Part shown: in pieces, positions 855 through 54,481 of the stretch
How the letters are laid out: every line of letters begins with the position of its first letter
Numbering within the stretch: the first letter of the stretch is position 1
Source: Candidatus Terrybacteria bacterium RIFCSPHIGHO2_01_FULL_43_35
GTDB lineage: Bacteria; Patescibacteriota; Minisyncoccia; Terrybacterales; GWB1-40-14
Direction: 5' to 3'
Length of the DNA: 64,000 bases
Assembly: GCA_001822815.1 (NCBI GenBank)
Contig: MHSR01000013.1
Span: 18,808-82,807 of the forward strand
Program-made: the position numbers and the translations under genes
The notes under the pieces: generated by a model
What the model was told of the DNA's origin: nothing
The model's input: the letters and a program-made list of their open reading frames with translations, nothing else
Database searches by the model: none

Positions 855-2558
855 ATGTCCAGAGCTGATTTAGAAAAATTAATAACAACCGTCCAACAAA
901 ATAACCCCAATGCCGATGTCGGGTTAATTGAACGCGCCTATACATTTGCCGAAACGGCGCATAGCGAACAGACGCGCTCTTCCGGCGATCCCTACATAAT
1001 CCATCCGGTGGCCGCGGCGCAAACATTGGCGGAAATGAAACTGGACGATTCAACTATTGCCGCAGCGCTCTTGCACGACGTGGTTGATGACACGCCTTTC
1101 ACTGTTGAAGACATCAAAAATGAATTCGGCGAAGAAATAGCTTTTTTGGTTGACGGCGTGACCAAACTGGGCAAAATAAAATACCGAGGTGAGGAACGGC
1201 ATGTTGAAAATCTACGCAAGATGTTTTTGGCCATGGCGCAAGATATAAGAGTGGTTTTGATAAAACTTGCTGATCGCATGCACAATATGGAGACCCTCTC
1301 GGCCCTGCCAGAACAAAAGCAATACCGCATAGCGCTTGAAACTTTGGAGGTTTACGCACCGCTGGCTTCGCGCCTTGGTATGGGCGAACTCAAAAGCCGC
1401 CTTGACGATCTAGCATTCCCTTATGTGTACCCCGAAGAATACAAACTCCTGCTCAGTAAGATAGGCGATCTTTATGAAAAACGCGAGGCTTATCTGGAAA
1501 AAGTGAAGCCTATTCTTTACGCCATACTTGATAAAGAAAATGTCCATCCCCTAGCCGTGCATGCCAGAGCCAAACATTACTATAGTCTGTGGCAAAAAAT
1601 GCATAGGCTGAATATGGAGATAGACAAAATATATGATTTGGTTGCCTTAAGGATAATAGTAAAAGATATCCCTGCCTGCTATGAAACCCTGGGCATAATC
1701 CACAAATATTGGAAGCCATTGCCTGGAAGAATTAAGGACTATATCGCTCTGCCCAAGCCAAACGGTTATCGCTCCCTGCACACCACGGTATTTTGTGAGG
1801 ATGGAGTAATAACCGAACTGCAAATACGAACACAGGAAATGCACCAAGAAGCGGAATACGGCATCGTCGCGCACTGGAATTATGAGGAAGAGGGCAAACC
1901 CGATCATGGTTCAATAACCTCAAGAAAACTGCGCTGGGTCAAACAGCTATCCGAATGGCAGCATGAAACGCAAGGAACGGATGAATTTCTGGACGCGTTA
2001 AAAATAGATTTTTTCCGCGAAAGGATTTTTGTCTTCACGCCCAAAGGCGATGTCATTGAACTACCCGAGGGCGCAACGCCCTTAGATTTTGCCTTTGCCA
2101 TACATTCACAGATCGGTGAGCAGGCTTCCGGCGCCAGAATTAACGATAAATTCGTGGGACTTGATACTCCGCTCCGCAACGGCGACGTAGTTGAAATCAT
2201 CGTCCAGAAAGGTAAAAAACCTTCGCAACAATTAATGGAGGTTGCCAAAACAACTGCGGCGCGCTCGCATTTGCGCAAATCTTTGCGTTCACAAGGTATT
2301 GAATTAGCGCCTAAAAAAGAGCCGGTGCGTGTAGAGATGATCTTGGGCGTAGAAAACCGCGTGGGCCTACTTAAAGACGTAACCGCAACCTTAGCTAAAT
2401 TCGGCGTAAATATAATAAAAATTGAAGGGTCGGAAAAGAAAAATTTAGCCGAAATAAATATTGTAGCCAATATATCCTCAAAACAAGACTTGCCGCGTAT
2501 AATCGTGCGGCTCAAGAAAATAAACGGCGTAGCTGATATTAAATCGCGATTCGTATAA
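855..2558 (+). CDS. relA: Bifunctional (p)ppGpp synthetase/hydrolase (RelA/SpoT family)
   Basis: HD hydrolase motif (HPVAAA...LHDVVDDT), RelA_SpoT synthetase region, and TGS and ACT-like C-terminal domains. ATG at 855. Confidence 0.85.
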   Translation: MSRADLEKLITTVQQNNPNADVGLIERAYTFAETAHSEQTRSSGDPYIIHPVAAAQTLAEMKLDDSTIAAALLHDVVDDTPFTVEDIKNEFGEEIAFLVDGVTKLGKIKYRGEERHVENLRKMFLAMAQDIRVVLIKLADRMHNMETLSALPEQKQYRIALETLEVYAPLASRLGMGELKSRLDDLAFPYVYPEEYKLLLSKIGDLYEKREAYLEKVKPILYAILDKENVHPLAVHARAKHYYSLWQKMHRLNMEIDKIYDLVALRIIVKDIPACYETLGIIHKYWKPLPGRIKDYIALPKPNGYRSLHTTVFCEDGVITELQIRTQEMHQEAEYGIVAHWNYEEEGKPDHGSITSRKLRWVKQLSEWQHETQGTDEFLDALKIDFFRERIFVFTPKGDVIELPEGATPLDFAFAIHSQIGEQASGARINDKFVGLDTPLRNGDVVEIIVQKGKKPSQQLMEVAKTTAARSHLRKSLRSQGIELAPKKEPVRVEMILGVENRVGLLKDVTATLAKFGVNIIKIEGSEKKNLAEINIVANISSKQDLPRIIVRLKKINGVADIKSRFV

Positions 2559-2614
2559 TCCAAAGCCAAGAAAAAACAGCCCTTTAAATCAGGACTGTTA
2601 TGCTTTATTGTATT

Positions 2615-3433
2615 CTAAGTCATTTCCCAGATCTTCTCTTCTGTTTTAGCAAGCGCTAGATTGAGTTGAGCAACATCAGTGGGATGAAAACCCTCCCTAA
2701 TCTCAGAGCCAGTAACCCATTTTGGATGATATTTGATAGCCACTCGTTCTTCGTAAACGATCTTACCTTTGCTGTTGTAGACTTGAATCAACCACTCCAG
2801 CGGTTCAAACCCGCTTATAGGTGAAAACACTTTAATTTTGAAATTGCTTACTTGCTTTTCGCTGTAAGGAAAAACTGGGTTCTTCCTATTACGGCGCGCG
2901 TCGTGGGGTATAAGAATTCCAGCCCATGAGGCTCCGGTGCCGGTGCCCGAAGCAAGTTTGCCTTCGCATTCAAGCATATTAACAGCGGTCCATACATGTT
3001 CCATATCTGCGCCAAATTCCATTGCGTTTTCTAGAATGGCGGATACAAGTGTGCCTGGAAGGTAGTTTGTATTACCGCCCAACCACTCATTGTTCTGTGA
3101 TCGCGTGAACAGTTCAAATACGGCATTCTTGAATGCATCGCTGATATAAGGAAACTTGCTTTCATGACTATCCAAATCGTGTTTTCCAGCAAGCTCTTGG
3201 CTGATTTCGTATCGCCGCAAAAACATTGCGGCGTTTATATATTTACAATCCCAACCATGCCAGGGATCAAATTCCCCGGATTGTTTATTTAGACCGCATT
3301 CGCACGCAACCATATATTCAACATAATCGATTTTTGCCGTCGTCTTAACCCAGACCACTTCGTGTCCATCAATAATAATCTTACTGATAACTTCAACTTT
3401 GTAATAGTCGTTTTCGTATGCATCCGGTAGCAT
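2615..3433 (-). CDS. Hypothetical protein (272 aa, cytoplasmic, no recognisable motif)
   Basis: Long ORF with good coding appearance, adjacent to parB. No family recognised. Confidence 0.5.
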   Translation of the reverse strand: MLPDAYENDYYKVEVISKIIIDGHEVVWVKTTAKIDYVEYMVACECGLNKQSGEFDPWHGWDCKYINAAMFLRRYEISQELAGKHDLDSHESKFPYISDAFKNAVFELFTRSQNNEWLGGNTNYLPGTLVSAILENAMEFGADMEHVWTAVNMLECEGKLASGTGTGASWAGILIPHDARRNRKNPVFPYSEKQVSNFKIKVFSPISGFEPLEWLIQVYNSKGKIVYEERVAIKYHPKWVTGSEIREGFHPTDVAQLNLALAKTEEKIWEMT

Positions 3434-3529
3434 ACAACAACTCCTTTTTGTAAAAGTTCTAATTTATAGCTTAAATGAATGGAGTTTGGATGTCAAAAAT
3501 GAAAAATCCCGCTTTCGCAGGATTAATTT

Positions 3530-4411
3530 TTATCCAAGAAGCGTTTTTAGCACCCTATCCATTTCTTCTTTACTGCTGAAACTTATTGATATAGAGCCAC
3601 GTTTGCCGTTTTTTAATATGCGCACCGGAACGCCAAGTTTAGCTTTAATTTTATCTTCCAACTCCCCTCTTTGCGCACTGGCTTCACGTTGCGGGATCCT
3701 GCGGATACGCGATATCAACAGTCGCGCTGTTTCTTCTGCGCCGCGCACAGATAATTTTTCTTTCTGGATTTTTGAGAAAAGAAGTCTTTGAGCCTTTTCG
3801 GTTTTCAATGCCAGAATAGCCCGTGCGTGCCCCTCGCTTATGGCACCGCGAGAAATACCTTCCTGAATAAGCGAAGGCAGGCTCAATAAACGCAAGGTGT
3901 TGGTGACAAATTCGCGGCTTTTGCCCACGCGCGCGGCGATTTCTTCATGCGTAAGTTTAAAATCTCCAAGGAGCCGCTTAAAGGCCATGGCCCGTTCAAG
4001 CGCATTTAAATTTTCTCGTTGAACATTCTCTATTAAAGATAAGAGTAGGTTGTGATGTTCGCTTTTTGTCTCTCTGATGATAACCGGCACGCGCGGCAGA
4101 CCGGCTATTTTTGCTGCGCGCCAGCGCCTTTCACCGGCAATAATCTCATACACAACATTGGCGCCTCTTTCTGAAGTTTTTTCCTTTTTATGGACAACCA
4201 AAGGCAGTAAAACGCCGTGTTCTCTTATTGATGAAGCCAGTTCGTACAAGGCATCTTTATCAAATTCACGTCTGGGCTGATTTGGATTTGGCTGAATGTC
4301 CTTAATATCCAGCAAATAAAGAATCTCTTGGTTTTTACCAGATTTTTTAGATACCTTTTTGTTTTCTTTTCTGGCCGGAATCAGCGATTCAAGGCCTTTA
4401 CCTGATTTCAT
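3530..4411 (-). CDS. parB: Chromosome partitioning protein ParB/Spo0J
   Basis: ParB N-terminal box (IIAGERRWRAAKIAGL) plus an HTH region. Immediately downstream of parA. Confidence 0.85.
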   Translation of the reverse strand: MKSGKGLESLIPARKENKKVSKKSGKNQEILYLLDIKDIQPNPNQPRREFDKDALYELASSIREHGVLLPLVVHKKEKTSERGANVVYEIIAGERRWRAAKIAGLPRVPVIIRETKSEHHNLLLSLIENVQRENLNALERAMAFKRLLGDFKLTHEEIAARVGKSREFVTNTLRLLSLPSLIQEGISRGAISEGHARAILALKTEKAQRLLFSKIQKEKLSVRGAEETARLLISRIRRIPQREASAQRGELEDKIKAKLGVPVRILKNGKRGSISISFSSKEEMDRVLKTLLG

Positions 4412-5237: not shown

Positions 5238-5344
5238 AAATCCAAATTAACACGAGCGTTTGGGCTTGGCAACGAACAAAAAAGGCTATATTATTTTTGT
5301 GGGCATGCGGCAGAACAGTATATTTGCCCTCACTCATCAATTTT

Positions 5345-5425
5345 GCCGAAGTGGCGGAATGGCAGACGCGCACGACTCAAAATCGTGTGAGGAAACTCAT
5401 GAGGGTTCGACTCCCTCCTTCGGCA
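5345..5425 (+). tRNA. tRNA-Leu (anticodon CAA), long variable arm, no encoded CCA
   Basis: Manual cloverleaf: acceptor GCCGAAG/CTTCGGC, D-arm, anticodon stem CACGA/TCGTG with loop CTCAAAA, long variable arm, T-arm GAGGG-TTCGACT-CCCTC. Confidence 0.85.
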
Positions 5426-5480
5426 CAAACGCAAAATTTAGTGCTGGGGCGCGCACCGACTTCTAGCACCAGAATGAATT

Positions 5481-5543
5481 CGGTGCGGTACAGGCAAAAT
5501 CGTGTGGAGAAATCCATGAGAGTTTGACTCTCTCCTCGCTCAC
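5481..5543 (+). pseudogene. Degenerate partial copy of the 3' half of tRNA-Leu (anticodon-stem remnant, variable arm, T-arm, acceptor 3' strand). It cannot form an acceptor stem.
   Basis: CAAAATCGTGTGGAGAAATCCATGAGAGTTTGACTCTCTCCTCGCTCACA is about 80% identical to the 3' half of the upstream tRNA-Leu. No complementary 5' acceptor strand lies upstream. Confidence 0.6.
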
Positions 5544-5557
5544 ATAGCATAAAAAGC

Positions 5558-5585
5558 AAAAATCCCGCAAACTACGGGATTTTTG
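5558..5585. terminator. Bidirectional intrinsic terminator (AAAAATCCCG-loop-CGGGATTTTT)
   Basis: Perfect 10-bp stem flanked by an A-run and a T-run. It lies between the tRNA-Leu locus (+) and the hup 3' end (-). Confidence 0.7.
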
Positions 5586-35315: not shown

Positions 35316-37058
35316 TTACATTCTTTCCGGAGCATGAATTCCCATTAGGCGCATGGTGTTGGCCAAAACTATTTTTGTGGCGCGCACCAATGCTAAACGC
35401 GCAAGAGTTAAATCCTTATCCTCGCCTATAACTTGGCAATCGCGATAAAAAGCCGAAAAAACCGTGGCCACATCCGTGGCATAAACTGGCAGACGGCTGA
35501 CTTCATATTTGGAGGCAATATCTTCTACTAATTCCGGCAGAATAATTAACTTCTTTATCAACTGCGTTTCTGAAGGGTGCGCCAATTTTAAAAGCAAGTT
35601 ATTTCTTGCCGACCCCTCAACAATCCCCTCTTGTTTGGCTTGCCCTGAGCCAGCCGAACTGGCTTTGGCCAGAATGCTTGCACATCTCGCATGAGCATAC
35701 TGCACATAATAGACCGGGTTTTTGTCGGATTGTTCGCGTGCCAAAGTCATATCAAAATCCATATGGCTATTTGGTTCGCGCATCAAAAAGAAGAAGCGCG
35801 CAGCATCCAAGCCTACAGTATCAACTAATTCTTCAAGGGTTATGAATGTTCCGGTACGCTTGGACATGCGCACTTCTTGCCCGTTTTCCATCAAACGCAC
35901 AAGCTGAACCAAAATAAAATCGAATTTTCTTGAGCTCGAAACAAGCCCCAAGGATGCAAAAACTCTGTTCAACGTAAACATATGGGCATGGTGGTCGGCG
36001 CCGACAATATCTATGACTTTATCAAAACGGCGCCGCTTAAATTTATCCCAGTGATAAGCTATATCCGGAAGCAAATATGTGGGCTCGCCGTTTGATTTAA
36101 TCAGAACTCTTTCGTTAATATTGTCGTTTTCTTTAAGTCGCAACCATTGGGCTCCTTCCTTTTTTTCGATCAAATGTTTTTTCTGAAGAGCTTCATAAGC
36201 CTCCTTAATAAGCCCCTGGCGATGTAGGCTTTTCTCCGAAAACCACACGTCGAAACGTATTTTAAGTTTTTTTGTTATTCTTTTTATATCTTCCAATATC
36301 ATCTTTGAAGCCGTGCGGCTTATTGCTTCCGGGTTCAATTCCTCCGGCTTAAACTTGGAAATTTGCAGTTTATAAGCCAGTTCCTGTACGTATCCTCCGG
36401 GATAAAGCTCTTCGGGCGGATAAGGAATTTTGTAATCCCCGCCCGAAACCTTACCGGCTGCAATTACCGACCAGCCCAATTTTTTTATCTGCTCCCCGGC
36501 ATCATTTACATAATATTCACGAGTAATTTTGTATCCGGCAAAATCTAAAACGTTAGACAGAGCATCACCCAAAAACCCTCCACGTCCGTTTCCCAAAGTA
36601 GGCGGACCGGTAGGATTTGCTGATATAAATTCTACCTGCACATTTTGCTTATGTCCGATATCTATACGGCCATAATTGTTTTTAGCGCTTAAAATATTCT
36701 TAATTTGTTTGGCTAGATATTCAGGAGAGAGTGAAAAATTTATAAACCCCGGTCCGGCAACTTTTACGCTTTTTACTACGGCATTAAAGCGCTTATTTGT
36801 TTCAAGTCCGGTAATAATATTTTCGGCTACGGCATGAGGAGATTTTTTGCCTATTGCGGCCAAAACCATGGCGATATTTGAAGCGTAATCGCCGTATTGG
36901 ATATTGCTGGCTGGTTCAACGGTAAAATTTATTTTTTCCATGTGAAAGCCGGCATTTTGAGACGCCGCAATAATACTCTTTATCAAAAATTGCTTGGTTG
37001 TGGCTACCTCGCCGGATCCTTTAGTAAATATCTTGTCCTTGGGTGATTTTGTGGCCAT
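35316..37058 (-). CDS. argS: Arginyl-tRNA synthetase
   Basis: SANPTGP signature region, DALS-type anticodon-binding C-terminus. 580 aa. Confidence 0.85.
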   Translation of the reverse strand: MATKSPKDKIFTKGSGEVATTKQFLIKSIIAASQNAGFHMEKINFTVEPASNIQYGDYASNIAMVLAAIGKKSPHAVAENIITGLETNKRFNAVVKSVKVAGPGFINFSLSPEYLAKQIKNILSAKNNYGRIDIGHKQNVQVEFISANPTGPPTLGNGRGGFLGDALSNVLDFAGYKITREYYVNDAGEQIKKLGWSVIAAGKVSGGDYKIPYPPEELYPGGYVQELAYKLQISKFKPEELNPEAISRTASKMILEDIKRITKKLKIRFDVWFSEKSLHRQGLIKEAYEALQKKHLIEKKEGAQWLRLKENDNINERVLIKSNGEPTYLLPDIAYHWDKFKRRRFDKVIDIVGADHHAHMFTLNRVFASLGLVSSSRKFDFILVQLVRLMENGQEVRMSKRTGTFITLEELVDTVGLDAARFFFLMREPNSHMDFDMTLAREQSDKNPVYYVQYAHARCASILAKASSAGSGQAKQEGIVEGSARNNLLLKLAHPSETQLIKKLIILPELVEDIASKYEVSRLPVYATDVATVFSAFYRDCQVIGEDKDLTLARLALVRATKIVLANTMRLMGIHAPERM

Positions 37059-37104: not shown

Positions 37105-37548
37105 ATGACAACCCTTGCCGAAAATAAACGGGCTGGATTCGATTATGAAATCCTCGAAAAAATGGAGGCTGGTATTGTGTTAAACGGACAGGAAACCAAG
37201 TCTATAAGAGCTGGGCAAGCGTCTCTGGGCGGAGCGTTTGTAACGGTTAAAAACAATGAACTCTGGCTGACTAATATGAATGTAGCCCCGTGGCAACCCA
37301 AGAATATATCGCACAATTACGATGAAGCCCGTCCAAGAAAACTATTGATGCATAAAAATGAGATCGCATCGCTCATAGGCAAAATCAAAACCCGCGGCTT
37401 GACGGCCCTGCCCTTGCGATTATATACTCACCACGGTAAGATTAAAGTCGAAATAGGCGTTGTTAAATATAGGAAAAAGCACGACAAAAGAGAATTGATA
37501 AAGAAACGCGACGCCCAACGGGATATTGCCAGAACCTTAGCAGAATAA
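37105..37548 (+). CDS. smpB: SsrA-binding protein SmpB
   Basis: KRAGFDYEILEKMEAGIVLNGQETKSIRAG matches the SmpB N-terminus. tmRNA gene follows directly. Confidence 0.85.
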   Translation: MTTLAENKRAGFDYEILEKMEAGIVLNGQETKSIRAGQASLGGAFVTVKNNELWLTNMNVAPWQPKNISHNYDEARPRKLLMHKNEIASLIGKIKTRGLTALPLRLYTHHGKIKVEIGVVKYRKKHDKRELIKKRDAQRDIARTLAE

Positions 37549-37552
37549 AAAT

Positions 37553-37935
37553 GGGGATGCCGGGCTTCGAAAAGGAAAAGTGTAGCGCGCGCAGGACGAG
37601 GCCGATCAACAACCTCGAAAAAAGTTGATCACTTACAAGTGCAAACTTGTTCGCAAAAGTGCAGAACGCTTTCCGCGTTCCAGCATTTGCTCTTGCTTAA
37701 ATTAGCTTGAGCCATCCGGCCCTGATGCTCGATAAGGAAACGCCGGGTGCCATACATCGAGCTTGACTAGCATAAGGACCTCGCTTGCGCTACGCGACTC
37801 AAACAGGGGTAGGAATATCTGAAATTCTGCCGTTCTTTGACCGGATATTCTGACAAAACATTACAGAATGGCTAATCCTGTAGAAGCGTGCCGCATAATT
37901 TTTCTTTGACGTGGGTTCAACTCCCACCATCTCCA
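37553..37935 (+). ncRNA. ssrA: tmRNA (SsrA)
   Basis: 5' GGGGATGCCGGGCTTCGA... pairs with 3' ...GACGTGGGTTCAACTCCCACCATCTCCA (tRNA-like domain). An internal tag frame at 37640-37699 ends ...AFALA-TAA. Located immediately after smpB. Confidence 0.8.
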
Positions 37936-38026
37936 CAAACCATGCCGACAATTTATAAATAGTTTTAACTATCTGCAAAAGTTTAATTATTATCAGCGCC
38001 GTCCGCAGTTTCAACGAGGACCGCGC

Positions 38027-38518
38027 ATGAACAATCAAATCAAGGCTTCGCCTGTGCGCGTTATAGATGAACAGGGTAAAAACCTAGGCGAAATGGATAC
38101 CCAAGAAGCTATTCGCTTGGCCTCCAGCCGTGCCTTAGATTTAATAGAGGTTTCTCCAGATGCTATACCGCCCGTGTGCCGAATAGTTAACCTTGGGAAA
38201 TGGAAATACGAACAGGCCAAAAAACAGCGGGCCCAAAAGGCGCACCAAAAACAGGTTGAGTTAAAAGGCATACGGATAACGATGCGTTCTTCCCTTCATG
38301 ATCTTGGAACTAGGGCGCGGCAAGCTGAAAAATTTTTAAACGAAGGCAACAAAGTGCGCGTGGAAATGCTGCTCAAGGGACGGGAGAGAGCAAACGAAAC
38401 ATTCGCCAGAGGCAAATTTGCGGAGTTCACTTCCCTCCTTTCTGTATCTTATAAAATGGAGCAGGATATAAAACGCGAGCCCAGGGGCTTGTCATTAATC
38501 ATAGTCAAGGGCAAATAA
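38027..38518 (+). CDS. infC: Translation initiation factor IF-3
   Basis: The IF-3 N- and C-domain sequence, followed by rpmI-rplT. Confidence 0.85.
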   Translation: MNNQIKASPVRVIDEQGKNLGEMDTQEAIRLASSRALDLIEVSPDAIPPVCRIVNLGKWKYEQAKKQRAQKAHQKQVELKGIRITMRSSLHDLGTRARQAEKFLNEGNKVRVEMLLKGRERANETFARGKFAEFTSLLSVSYKMEQDIKREPRGLSLIIVKGK

Positions 38519-52279: not shown

Positions 52280-53644
52280 CTACAACTCGTGCTTATCGTC
52301 CATAAACGGCGCCTGCGCATCAAGATTCAAAAATTCTTTTATATGGCTGACTAAAGCCAAGGAAGCGGCTTCTTCGCCGTGGGTAACAAAAATATTTTTG
52401 GGTGGGTTTTTTATTTTGTCTAGCCAGGCTACCAAGCCTTCTTGATCGGCATGCGAAGAATAGGCTCCCAAACCCTTCACTAGGGCATTAACTCTGACGG
52501 ATTGGCCCAAAATGCGCACCGAACGCGCGCCGTCAAAAAGTCTACGGCCCAAAGAGCCGGCTGCCTGATAGCCCATAAAAAGAAGTACGGAGTTGGAGTC
52601 GGAAAGATATCGAACGGCGTGGTGCAAAATGCGCCCACCTATCATCATGCCCGAACCAGCAATGATGATTTTGGGCGGCGGTACGCCATTGATTTGTTTT
52701 GATTCGGCAACCGTCGGAGTCATAACCATACCAGGGAAGCTGAATAATTTGTCTCCTGAAGCGATCAGCTTCTTGGCTTCAACGTTATAATAATCAGGAT
52801 ATCTTTCATAAATTTTTGTAGCGTGAATGGCCAAAGGACTATCAATAAATACCGGGATGGGCGTAATTTGTTTTTGTTCAACAAATTTATCTATCTCAAA
52901 TAAAATTTCTTGTTCTTTTTCAAAAGCGAATACAGGCATCATCAATACGCCTTTGTTAGCTATAACTTTTTCTATTATCGTTTCCAGTTTTTTATTACGC
53001 TCATCTCTTACTTCGTGTATTTTATTTCCATAAGTAGACTCGATTATCACGTAATCGGCTTGTTCAACTGCTTCCGTGGGTTTCAGTAGAGGCGTAGGCG
53101 GATTACCTAAATCCCCGGAAAAAACTATTGTCTTCCCTTCTATCTTTAATTCTATTATTGATGAGCCCAGGACGTGCCCCGCATCAAGTAACCTGAAGGA
53201 TATATCGGGGGCCAGCTTAGTCTCTTCTCTATAATTGACGGTTTTGAATTGCCTAATGGTCTCAGTAACATCGGCGTCAAAATACAACGGTTTTCCGCCG
53301 ATATCCTGGGATTCTTGGAGCATCAGCTCGGCTGCGTCGCGCAAAAGTATCTCGGCAAAATCTTTTGTCGGAGGCGTAGAATAAATAGATCCGCGATAAC
53401 CTTCCTTTACCAACTTTGGTAATTTGCCCGTATGATCCATGTGGGCATGAGTTATCAGCACTGCGTCCAGTTCACTTGGCTCAAAAACAAATGGCTTAAT
53501 GTTTGCGCCCTCATAGAAACGACAATCTTGGGACATTCCACAATCGACCAAAATCTTTTGGCCTTCGGTTTCAATTAAATACTGTGAGCCGGTAACCTTG
53601 CGCGCCGCTCCCAAAAAAGAAAGGGTCACTGACATATGACCCAT
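52280..53644 (-). CDS. Beta-CASP MBL-fold RNA-metabolising hydrolase (RNase J/CPSF-like)
   Basis: HAHMDHTG metallo-beta-lactamase motif plus beta-CASP-like and RNA-specificity regions. 454 aa. Confidence 0.65.
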   Translation of the reverse strand: MGHMSVTLSFLGAARKVTGSQYLIETEGQKILVDCGMSQDCRFYEGANIKPFVFEPSELDAVLITHAHMDHTGKLPKLVKEGYRGSIYSTPPTKDFAEILLRDAAELMLQESQDIGGKPLYFDADVTETIRQFKTVNYREETKLAPDISFRLLDAGHVLGSSIIELKIEGKTIVFSGDLGNPPTPLLKPTEAVEQADYVIIESTYGNKIHEVRDERNKKLETIIEKVIANKGVLMMPVFAFEKEQEILFEIDKFVEQKQITPIPVFIDSPLAIHATKIYERYPDYYNVEAKKLIASGDKLFSFPGMVMTPTVAESKQINGVPPPKIIIAGSGMMIGGRILHHAVRYLSDSNSVLLFMGYQAAGSLGRRLFDGARSVRILGQSVRVNALVKGLGAYSSHADQEGLVAWLDKIKNPPKNIFVTHGEEAASLALVSHIKEFLNLDAQAPFMDDKHEL

Positions 53645-53967: not shown

Positions 53968-54020
53968 GTGCCCCCGCGAGGAATTGAACCCCGATTTCAG
54001 CCTCCGGCTTGCCCCGCGCT
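53968..54020 (-). pseudogene. Degenerate partial copy of the 3' half of tRNA-Arg (T-arm plus acceptor 3' strand). It cannot form a complete cloverleaf.
   Basis: The minus-strand sequence CCGGAGGCTGAAATCGGGGTTCAATTCCTCGCGGGGGCACA parallels the tRNA-Arg 3' half (CCGGAGGAGGAGACTGGGGGTTCGATTCCTCTCGAGGACA). No matching 5' acceptor strand. Confidence 0.55.
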
Positions 54021-54040
54021 AAATTTGTATTACCTGTGCG

Positions 54041-54113
54041 TGTCCTCGAGAGGAATCGAACCCCCAGTCTCCTCCTCCGGAGGGAGGCGTTTTATCCATT
54101 AAACTACGAGGAC
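54041..54113 (-). tRNA. tRNA-Arg (anticodon CCG), no encoded CCA
   Basis: Manual cloverleaf on the minus strand: acceptor GTCCTCG/CGAGGAC, D-stem GTTT/AAAC, anticodon stem CCTCC/GGAGG with loop CTCCGGA, T-loop TTCGATT. Confidence 0.8.
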
Positions 54114-54481
54114 AAATTTTAGTGCGAGGGCGTTGTCAGCCACCTTATGATAAAGTCGCGTGCGATTTTTGCCACGCCGTAGCGTGATCCCACCTTCTTA
54201 AAAAATTAAATAACTGTGACAGAAAAATGCGAATCCGCCTGTGGCGGAAACTATAAGCGCATTATACATCTATAACTACCTTTGAAAAGTTTATTTGTTC
54301 AACGATAGTACCCGCCGCATGCGCTTTTCTTTGATTGTTTTTGACATAGATATAGCCATTTCTCATTGTGGAGAAAACCGCCATATGTGTCTGCACATTA
54401 CCACTATGTATTGACTTTTTCTATAATAAGTATATACTATATTTACTCAGTTCTCACCAGCATACCAAAAAGGAGCTCTCC

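Follow-up and report, generated by a model that had tools for sequence, protein, structure and literature searches.

Two tRNA loci of a Patescibacteria contig as probable nested tRNA genes, and their likeness to tRNA-targeting mobile DNA

Introduction

Phages, integrative and conjugative elements (ICEs) and genomic islands that target tRNA genes leave a recognisable signature: foreign DNA lies in the tRNA gene, a working tRNA is kept and a partial copy stands beside it. A similar signature marks the tRNA-Leu(CAA) and tRNA-Arg(CCG) loci of the DNA analysed here, a stretch of 64,000 nucleotides of contig MHSR01000013.1 from Candidatus Terrybacteria bacterium RIFCSPHIGHO2_01_FULL_43_35 (hereafter the window). 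We propose that at both loci the intact tRNA gene and the tRNA-like pieces around it are probably a nested pair: an "outer" gene, originally resident at the site and now a decayed relic, and an "inner" gene, complete and working, that lies inside a cassette. Such an arrangement would depart from integrative elements in several ways. What is brought in is an entire tRNA gene instead of a 3′ segment alone; a single cut, without duplication, opens the resident gene, the D loop and the anticodon stem being among the insertion points; and the insert is short (~130-200 bp), ends in inverted repeats and holds no integrase.

A second set of likenesses is with miniature inverted-repeat transposable elements (MITEs), with REP (repetitive extragenic palindromic) and REPIN elements, which are moved by the Y1 transposases called RAYTs, and with the Rickettsia palindromic elements, which insert into genes. 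All are short, lack open reading frames (ORFs), form hairpins and occur in several copies and both orientations; their presence varies among relatives, and they would need mobilisation in trans. The inserts described here differ in that they show no target-site duplication, occupy only tRNA genes among the loci examined, have no associated transposase known and, in one form, carry a complete tRNA that matches the anticodon of the interrupted gene. The absent duplication is compatible with HUH-type elements and not with DDE-type MITEs.

The disrupted tRNA genes of archaea, whether interrupted by bulge-helix-bulge introns, split or tri-split, offer a third comparison: they too have short structured inserts at several non-canonical positions, and 5′ fragments beside intact genes. 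A mobile-element model of archaeal tRNA disruption exists, and a tRNA-Thr gene disrupted by a mobile element is on record from Caldiarchaeum (PMC3293823). The present case differs in its bacterial host, in the full tRNA held by the insert, in the decay of the outer genes and in that neither a bulge-helix-bulge nor a splicing endonuclease is evident. Group I introns, finally, are described from the tRNA genes of Patescibacteria, including at the 35/36 site, in a study that makes no mention of nesting or of inverted repeats (Nakagawa et al. 2026, PMC13011429). Those introns share with our inserts the phylum, a place within tRNA genes and, in tRNA-Ile, the unusual position 35/36; the inserts reported here, however, are far too short for a ribozyme, match no Rfam intron and hold a tRNA. 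In a literature search of incomplete coverage we found no description of nested tRNA genes or of tRNA-carrying palindromic inserts in bacteria.

Results

Downstream fragments match alleles that are uninterrupted in relatives

The host belongs to the Patescibacteria (Candidate Phyla Radiation, CPR), and bacterial markers – transfer-messenger RNA (tmRNA), HU, RNase Y and ParAB – lie within the window. Its ParA matches, at 100% identity, a protein assigned at NCBI to Candidatus Terrybacteria bacterium RIFCSPLOWO2_01_FULL. ARAGORN recovers only three RNA genes from the 64 kb, namely tRNA-Leu(CAA), tmRNA and tRNA-Arg(CCG); the flanking 10 kb on each side hold no additional tRNAs. For comparison we collected loci of relatives by a metagenome scan with a shared tRNA-Leu pattern, and from contigs reached via ParA and beta-CASP homologues; labels such as L103 and L131 denote these contigs.

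At both loci one intact tRNA is followed by a segment that resembles its 3′ part but is not itself a tRNA. Nucleotides 34-75 of tRNA-Leu agree with 5495-5536 at 35 of 42 positions (83%), the local alignment in the downstream 133 nt scoring 49 against 14.0 +/- 2.2 (maximum 27) in 2000 shuffles. For tRNA-Arg, nt 34-74 set against about 54007-53968 score 35, with 13.7 +/- 2.2 (maximum 26) in shuffles. Neither segment gives an Rfam tRNA match even at E<=10, and ARAGORN returns nothing for either, as found or after in-silico exon joining. To this extent our results bear out an initial annotation of the sequence, which had also pointed out that the segment has no 5′ acceptor strand ahead of it (none is seen at Leu, none at Arg) and that the arrangement recurs at tRNA-Arg. 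Its boundaries require adjustment. The tRNA-Leu gene that it placed at 5345-5425 ends at 5426 according to ARAGORN, and the segment that it placed at 5481-5543 is a genuine tRNA-like 3′ part whose homology from nt 34 begins at 5495, 5462-5494 being palindromic; a further piece corresponding to nt 22-33 (5450-5461) had been missed.

The same annotation took the segment for a degenerate copy of the adjacent tRNA, and this does not hold. Six of the seven mismatches in the Leu alignment make up three compensatory pairs, in the variable arm (UGAG/CUCA to UGGA/UCCA) and the T stem (GAGGG/CCCUC to GAGAG/CUCUC). Moreover, 5495-5542 is identical at 46 of 48 positions to another, intact tRNA-Leu(CAA) allele (acceptor GGGCGAG/CTCGCCC) carried by L123, L126 and L131, from which it departs by C56->T and by a single C->T in the acceptor. 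The closest relatives that we found, L131 and L126 (ParA 79.7% and HU 88% identical to those of the window), both have the relic-type allele uninterrupted at the same site, between parA and HU. The Arg fragment likewise is identical at 36 of 40 positions to nt 34-73 of the tRNA-Arg(CCG) gene that stands unbroken in L256 at the syntenic position, upstream of the beta-CASP gene: this alignment scores 60 (shuffles 13 +/- 2, maximum 22), compared with 35 for the window's own inner tRNA-Arg. Since the fragments match uninterrupted alleles of relatives at both loci, we conclude that the fragment is what remains of the original resident gene and that the intact gene is the newcomer.

These comparisons bear on the possibility that two same-anticodon genes once stood in tandem, of which the downstream one lost its 5′ part and gained an insertion. 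In the window only downstream pieces are clear (Leu from nt 22, Arg from nt 34), as in L120, and a decayed duplicate would account for this. The closest relatives, however, have a single gene at the site, and its allele is that of the relic and not that of the intact gene.

They bear equally on the tyrosine integrase invoked by the initial annotation, in which an element replaced the 3′ part of the tRNA gene and was later lost, leaving attL and attR nearly adjacent. After integration by such an enzyme the 5′ half of the intact gene is still that of the host, and the 3′ fragment displaced from the host gene must be able to pair with it. At Leu the relic's acceptor 3′ strand CTCGCTC forms only three of seven pairs with the inner 5′ strand GCCGAAG; at Arg the inner anticodon-stem 5′ strand CCTCC is unable to pair with the relic's 3′ strand GGCTG. 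The whole of the intact gene is therefore foreign to the relic. The partial copy does reach the 3′ end of the tRNA, and its nt-34-onward part starts in the anticodon loop, which is reported to be among the sublocations used by integrases (Williams 2002, NAR); some relatives, moreover, do have small elements bordered by genuine att-like direct repeats of a tRNA 3′ end (19 nt in L258, similar in L101, L093 and L096). Yet the Leu relic extends to nt 22 and holds a palindromic insert, and blastn-short searches of both tRNAs and relics against the window gave no third repeat copy; there is no island, and the window ORFs scanned include no integrase. Insertion of foreign DNA into tRNA genes is thus the part of the earlier interpretation that survives; attL/attR, the excision scar and the collapsed island do not, and we consider an integrase origin extremely unlikely.

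Two small conserved elements lie beside tRNA genes of relatives. The first, of ~110-185 nt (GACTAGAAAAT...GTTCCGAAAG.TTGGAGGAACTT.AGCC...GGGCGAGGCGGGAATAT), lies behind tRNA-Arg in three relatives and behind the tRNA-Leu cluster of L093 (L258 9786-9990, also L259; L254 9862-9975; L093 about 750-640, minus strand). In L258 it is bounded by the 19-nt direct repeat of the tRNA 3′ end (GATTCCTCTCGAGGGCACC), a classical att-like duplication around a miniature element and a scar of the type that the initial annotation envisaged; the window lacks this element. The second, of ~130 nt, is found downstream of tRNA-Leu(CAA) (GGAGKCGAACASGAAAGGGG...TTTYCCCGTGTAGGAAA...AAACCG.GGTTTT.AAGRAGTGAG...) and ends with an 18-24-nt copy of the tRNA from T loop to 3′ end (L101 2090-2310, minus strand; L107; L093 740-910, minus strand; L098 1-70, minus strand; L096 3998-4175); it has no Rfam match.

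Seven contigs of the organism, each assembled independently, show the Leu arrangement without any difference. The Leu relic has an extra base in the anticodon stem and the T-loop change C56->T, lacks a 5′ acceptor strand and has lost the CCA that is encoded in L131. We considered and rejected the idea that a 3′ half behind tRNA-Leu is a universal structural feature: it is absent in at least 15 relatives with ParA 52-55% identical. Many contigs of the species and its relatives (L008-L010, L091, L092, L094, L095) terminate in or beside the tRNA-Leu locus, which could reflect strain heterogeneity or repeats there. In L131 two paralogous secreted-protein genes (2337-3643; 186 and 174 aa; common VTCSGYGCD...ELRYSS.C.T.WSR) lie between tRNA-Leu and HU; both are absent in the window.

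Complete nests in relatives

The clearest view of the arrangement comes from relatives in which both sides of the outer gene can be read. In L103 and L114 an outer tRNA-Leu(CAA) is broken in the D loop by an insert that consists of an inner tRNA-Leu(CAA) within inverted repeats, and is broken a second time, between nt 33 and 34, by a short palindrome. With junctions marked by slashes the locus reads GCCCGGG UG GCGG AAUGGCAGA / TTTA-CCCCGCACTAA...(complete tRNA-Leu(CAA))...TTAGTGCGGGG / CGC G CACGA CU / 30-nt hairpin / CAAAA UCGUG, variable arm, T arm, CCCGGGC A CCA. The same design recurs at the Leu locus of L093 (ParA 71% identical) and of the L112 family (five identical contigs). Nests also occur in tRNA-Ile(GAU) genes: in L103/L114, with the insert at 35/36; in L101/L107; and in L117, which has a D-loop insert and a 34-nt hairpin at 29/30. 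Inverted-repeat pairs are present in all nests (for example CCCCGCACTAA/TTAGTGCGGGG and CCCCGTAGTAAAATTT/AAATTTACTACGGGG), and the palindromes without cargo measure 30-34 nt.

In L103, L093, L112 and L117 the outer 5′ and 3′ pieces meet at a single nucleotide position without overlap and together make one tRNA, which argues for simple insertion and not duplication. Once the inserts are removed, outer Leu genes of the L103 and L093 type would join as ...AAUGGCAGA/CGCGCAC... and ...CGACU/CAAAAUCG..., and in-silico deletion restores ARAGORN-valid cloverleafs with the right anticodons in five of six cases (Leu of L103, L093 and L112; Ile of L103 and L117). ARAGORN gave no valid cloverleaf for L101 Ile or for the two outer genes of the window. 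With introns allowed, the program spans the outer genes unaided.

Outer genes of several lineages are damaged, and in different ways. T-arm positions that are universally conserved are altered in the outer Leu genes: C56->T in the window, G53->A in L103 and T54->C in L112; outer Leu of L112 also has a mismatch in the anticodon stem and, in its D arm, a third palindrome. The 3′ part of outer Ile in L117 has been converted to the inner sequence as far as the middle of the T stem, which is thereby broken, and outer Ile of L101 has a T-loop insert and no longer folds. Judged from these sequences, the varied stages of decay point to a function that was lost once the insertion had taken place. L112 has a further palindrome of ~80 nt, ACCCAGTAGTGAGAGTTTGGC...GCCAAACTTCTACTACTGGGT, between parA and its outer tRNA-Leu (about 1440-1530, minus strand); palindromic inserts seem to cluster at this locus.

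Neither of the alternatives raised above sits well with the nests. The relatives L103, L112, L093 and L117 carry a 5′ exon upstream of the intact gene, with the same repeats and insert positions, and the same inverted-repeat motif surrounds two unrelated tRNAs of the window; both observations speak against a decayed tandem duplicate, which we regard as unlikely. Outer pieces that abut without overlap, with the 5′ exon upstream, are no better explained by an integrase.

The nests do raise a further possibility, namely that the tRNAs contain introns or are split, with the inserts removed at the RNA level, the repeats holding the exons together and the outer gene functional as well; a tRNA would then be encoded within an intron, in a bacterial parallel to the multi-intron or split tRNAs of archaea. 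The outer exons of L103, L093 and L112 give full cloverleafs whose acceptor strands, ~250 nt apart, are complementary yet lineage-specific; the inverted repeats of L101 and L103 remain complementary though their sequences differ; CCA is encoded by the outer and the stand-alone tRNAs of L103 but not by its inner ones; and inserts in the D loop and T loop and at 29/30, 33/34 and 35/36 are reminiscent, by position, of non-canonical introns of archaea. For the window such a reading is excluded, since its outer Leu gene has no 5′ acceptor strand, a T-loop C56->T change and an additional anticodon-stem base; and outer genes of other lineages also bear disabling changes. Inspection revealed no bulge-helix-bulge: the repeat helix begins right at the junction, without 3-nt bulges 4 bp apart. 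At Rfam E-value thresholds the window loci and L093, L101, L103, L112 and L120 yield tRNAs only, with no group I or II intron signal, and covariance models detect no ribozyme core in the inserts of the same loci. A tRNA-splicing endonuclease or RNA ligase was not found among the window ORFs scanned. The same hairpin, moreover, occurs in both orientations, as befits an element that acts at the level of DNA. Overall we judge introns or split genes very unlikely, and of low probability also for those relatives whose outer genes are intact.

The two loci of the window

Nesting at the window's loci is read by comparison with these relatives (Table 1). The Leu locus is collinear with the nests of L103 and L112, and its second insert is homologous to theirs, occupies the same position and appears as a hairpin in the predicted fold. 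Its right repeat and middle exon (5433-5461) are identical to those of L103 at 24 of 25 positions (z 16), despite ParA proteins just ~50% identical, and are kept in L112 (z 12). The left and right repeats pair with -12.7 kcal/mol (RNAduplex, z -1.9). The promoter-like site upstream is the likely start of a transcript carrying both inner tRNA-Leu and relic, to go by its sequence.

At Arg the corresponding repeats pair more stably (RNAduplex -22.7 kcal/mol, z -2.5), and the right repeat is similar to the right repeats of the window's Leu locus, L103 and L112 (z 6-9). The leaders of the two loci resemble each other, and the 64 kb hold just two exact occurrences of the 11-mer AAATTTAGYGC, one behind each tRNA. 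Setting the palindrome aside, gene and relic are 23 nt apart at Leu and 32 nt at Arg. Some ~120-150 nt upstream of the inner tRNA-Arg, a hairpin GTTTCCGCCACAGGCGGATTCG (54251-54230) is identical at 20 of 22 positions to one in L254 (score 34, shuffle maximum 28), where it directly follows a perfect 12-nt copy of the 5′ end of that genome's own tRNA-Arg. Apart from this hairpin-bearing remnant the outer Arg 5′ exon of the window is unrecognisable.

Table 1. Features of the two tRNA loci and the tmRNA gene in the window
Feature	Position	Strand	Basis and remarks
Promoter-like site TTGGCA-17-TATTAT (Leu)	5266-5294	+	Consensus scan; region homologous to upstream of L093, L102, L131
Possible, strongly degenerate remnant of outer tRNA-Leu 5′ exon, GTGGGCATGCGGCAGA vs GGGCGAGTGGCGGAATGGCAGA	5299-5314	+	Collinear with outer 5′ exons of L103, L112
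Left inverted repeat and leader of Leu cassette, degenerate, TTTGCCCTCACTCATCAATTTT	5323-5344	+	Pairs with 5433-5449; aligns with TTTACCCCGCACTAATC of L103 and L112
Inner intact tRNA-Leu(CAA), acceptor GCCGAAG/CTTCGGC	5345-5426	+	ARAGORN; Rfam tRNA 59.2 bits
Right inverted repeat of Leu cassette, AAAATTTAGTGCTGGGG	5433-5449	+	AAATTTAGYGC 11-mer motif
Outer tRNA-Leu relic nt 22-33 (D-stem 3′ strand, nt 26, anticodon-stem 5′ strand, C32, U33), one extra C	5450-5461	+	CGCGCACCGACT vs CGCGCACGACT in L131, L103, L112
33-nt palindromic insert between outer nt 33 and 34, TCTAGCACCAGAATGAATTCGGTGCGGTACAGG	5462-5494	+	Homologous inserts at same position in L112 (CCCCGCACCAGAGTAAAGCTCGGTGCGGGGCAGG) and L103
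Outer tRNA-Leu(CAA) relic nt 34-73 (anticodon, anticodon-stem 3′ strand, variable arm, T arm, acceptor 3′ strand CTCGCTC, discriminator A)	5495-5542	+	Homology to relatives' allele
Bidirectional intrinsic terminator, common to convergent HU gene	5557-5585	both	Terminator scan, both strands
tmRNA	37553-37936	+	ARAGORN; tag peptide ANLFAKVQNAFRVPAFALA
Promoter-like site (Arg)	54288-54261	-	Just upstream of outer tRNA-Arg 5′ fragment
Degenerate outer tRNA-Arg 5′ fragment GCGCTTATAGTTT, then hairpin insert TCCGCC-ACA-GGCGGA	54230-54260	-	Hairpin likeness to L254
Left inverted repeat and leader of Arg cassette, GCCCTCGCACTAAAATTT	54114-54131	-	Pairs with 54026-54011; related to left repeats of Leu cassettes
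Inner intact tRNA-Arg(CCG), working gene	54040-54113	-	ARAGORN; Rfam tRNA 65.7 bits
Right inverted repeat of Arg cassette, AAATTTAGCGCGGGGC, then AAG	54008-54026	-	Exact motif common with Leu locus
Outer (resident) tRNA-Arg(CCG) relic nt 34-73	53969-54007	-	Homology to L256 gene

The third RNA gene of the window, tmRNA, has no relic or inverted repeats behind it in the region read (37500-38300). Directly downstream of tRNA-Arg(CCG) is a gene for a beta-CASP/RMMBL metallo-beta-lactamase (RNase J/CPSF-like; 52280-53644, minus strand), a synteny kept across Terrybacteria-like contigs. The 14-mer GGGGTTCAATTCCT, at 36331-36344 (plus strand) in the ArgRS gene, equals the T arm of the tRNA-Arg relic exactly, probably by chance (E about 0.01).

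Signs of mobility

Several features of their distribution suggest that cassettes and hairpins are mobile. Repeats of one family flank different cargo tRNAs (Leu, Arg) in a single genome, and near-identical repeat sequences are found in genomes that are just distantly related. The presence or absence of cassettes varies among relatives, with empty sites in L131, L126 and L256. The 34-nt hairpin at 33/34 of the L112-type tRNA-Leu is the reverse complement of that at 29/30 of tRNA-Ile in the same genome type (L112/L117). In L117 a doubled 5′ fragment and left repeat – an arrangement akin to a Russian doll – indicates repeated insertion at the same D-loop site. The pattern CCGCAC-N3-30-GTGCGG was found inside outer tRNAs only in a scan of 133 loci. 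Finally, the window's inner Leu gene differs at two positions from the resident (outer) gene of L093: the resident allele of one lineage is therefore the cargo of another.

No agent of such movement came to light. Neither an integrase nor a transposase turned up when the flanking ORFs and most others of the window were scanned against Pfam, the gene tables for contigs of the same species list no integrase, and the neighbours in the window are core genes (ParAB, HU, RNase Y, GlmS, LeuRS, MetRS, RecO, ArgRS, IF3, PolX, RuvA). As to a phage origin, the exact tRNA-Leu pattern has no match in viral contigs, and the hairpin pattern finds only generic, uninformative GC-rich hairpins there; that candidate was dropped, as was a general leader-trailer processing stem of CPR tRNAs, for which RNAduplex on about 40 tRNAs of relatives gave no general signal. 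Outside the window, a small (~93 aa) ORF with a GIY-YIG nuclease domain lies directly beside tRNA-Leu(CAA), toward parA, in three lineages, L093 (1287-1565, plus strand), L011 (3659-3892) and L120 (4455-4652); the window has none. As a lead only, it could be a free-standing homing-type nuclease tied to instability of the tRNA-Leu locus.

Discussion

Our data point to nested tRNA genes at both loci of the window. The sequences themselves show the anatomy, its recurrence in relatives, the genes that stand uninterrupted at empty sites there and the decay of the outer genes. How such nests would arise and work can be sketched as follows. A resident tRNA gene would be split by a cassette of ~130-200 bp without ORF, consisting of a complete same-anticodon tRNA gene bracketed by inverted repeats that combine a GC-rich clamp, such as CCCCGCAC...GTGCGGGG, with an inner part of AAATTT type. 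The insertion point is the D loop at Leu (nt 21/22), while the Arg relic begins at nt 34; at 33/34 outer Leu is also split by a related palindrome of 30-34 nt without cargo. Transcription from the promoter of the locus would yield the inner tRNA, freed by RNase P and RNase Z, and would run on through the relic, as a 3′ trailer, to the terminator. The cargo tRNA would render the disruption harmless. Movement could be effected in trans by an HUH/Y1-type transposase that recognises hairpins, or by repair after a break made by a nuclease specific for tRNA genes, such as the small GIY-YIG proteins beside some loci; HUH/Y1-type chemistry or site-specific break repair would fit because target duplications are lacking and the ends are hairpins.

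Several points count against this account. Junctions such as GGCAGA/TTTACCCC...GCGGGG/CGCG show no target-site duplication, and neither a mobilising enzyme nor a common target sequence nor a cis-encoded protein was found. The account also has to explain how a cassette reaches a gene of its own anticodon, be it through homology-assisted repair or through recognition of structure. No complete Arg nest was found in relatives: L254 has the 5′ relic only, the window the 3′ relic and hairpin only. The left side is weak in the window, where neither the left inverted repeat nor what remains of the 5′ exon reaches significance alone. The Leu remnant at 5299-5314 we treat as weak because MAFFT can also align 5299-5330 with the promoter of L131. 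The window's nest is therefore established by homology with relatives and not by the window alone. Finally, the acceptor strands of the outer genes of L103, L093 and L112 are perfectly complementary and yet unlike one another, which would require either that the same sites were hit several times independently or that selection still acts on the outer gene.

As neither enzyme, target-site duplication nor common target was found, it is from distribution only that we infer mobility: that cassettes and hairpins are non-autonomous elements moved in trans seems to us evenly balanced. More tentatively – we stop somewhat short of favouring it – Patescibacteria may carry an undescribed class of miniature palindrome-ended mobile cassettes that insert into tRNA genes, offset the damage with a complete same-anticodon tRNA, cross between distant genomes, insert anew into nests and leave the outer genes to decay. 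We class the feature as a variant of mobile DNA that targets tRNA genes, of which the window holds two decayed examples.

What would otherwise pass for a routine prophage scar thus becomes the trace of another route, in which selfish DNA brings a full spare copy of the essential resident gene that it breaks. If this is general, tRNA counts, genome-completeness scores and finders of islands that rely on tRNA fragments would misread such genomes. At less than 200 bp, and with sites that are clearly either empty or filled, the system is a tractable one in which to look for an enzyme that recognises tRNA genes or hairpins in bacteria with very small genomes. It would also set a bacterial counterpart beside the disrupted tRNA genes of archaea, whose origin has long been debated. 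In relatives whose outer genes are intact, bacterial splicing of such tRNAs is directly testable by tRNA-seq; were the outer gene still expressed in some lineages through removal of the tRNA-holding inserts, this would be the first protein-dependent (non-ribozyme) tRNA splicing, or the first split tRNA, in Bacteria.

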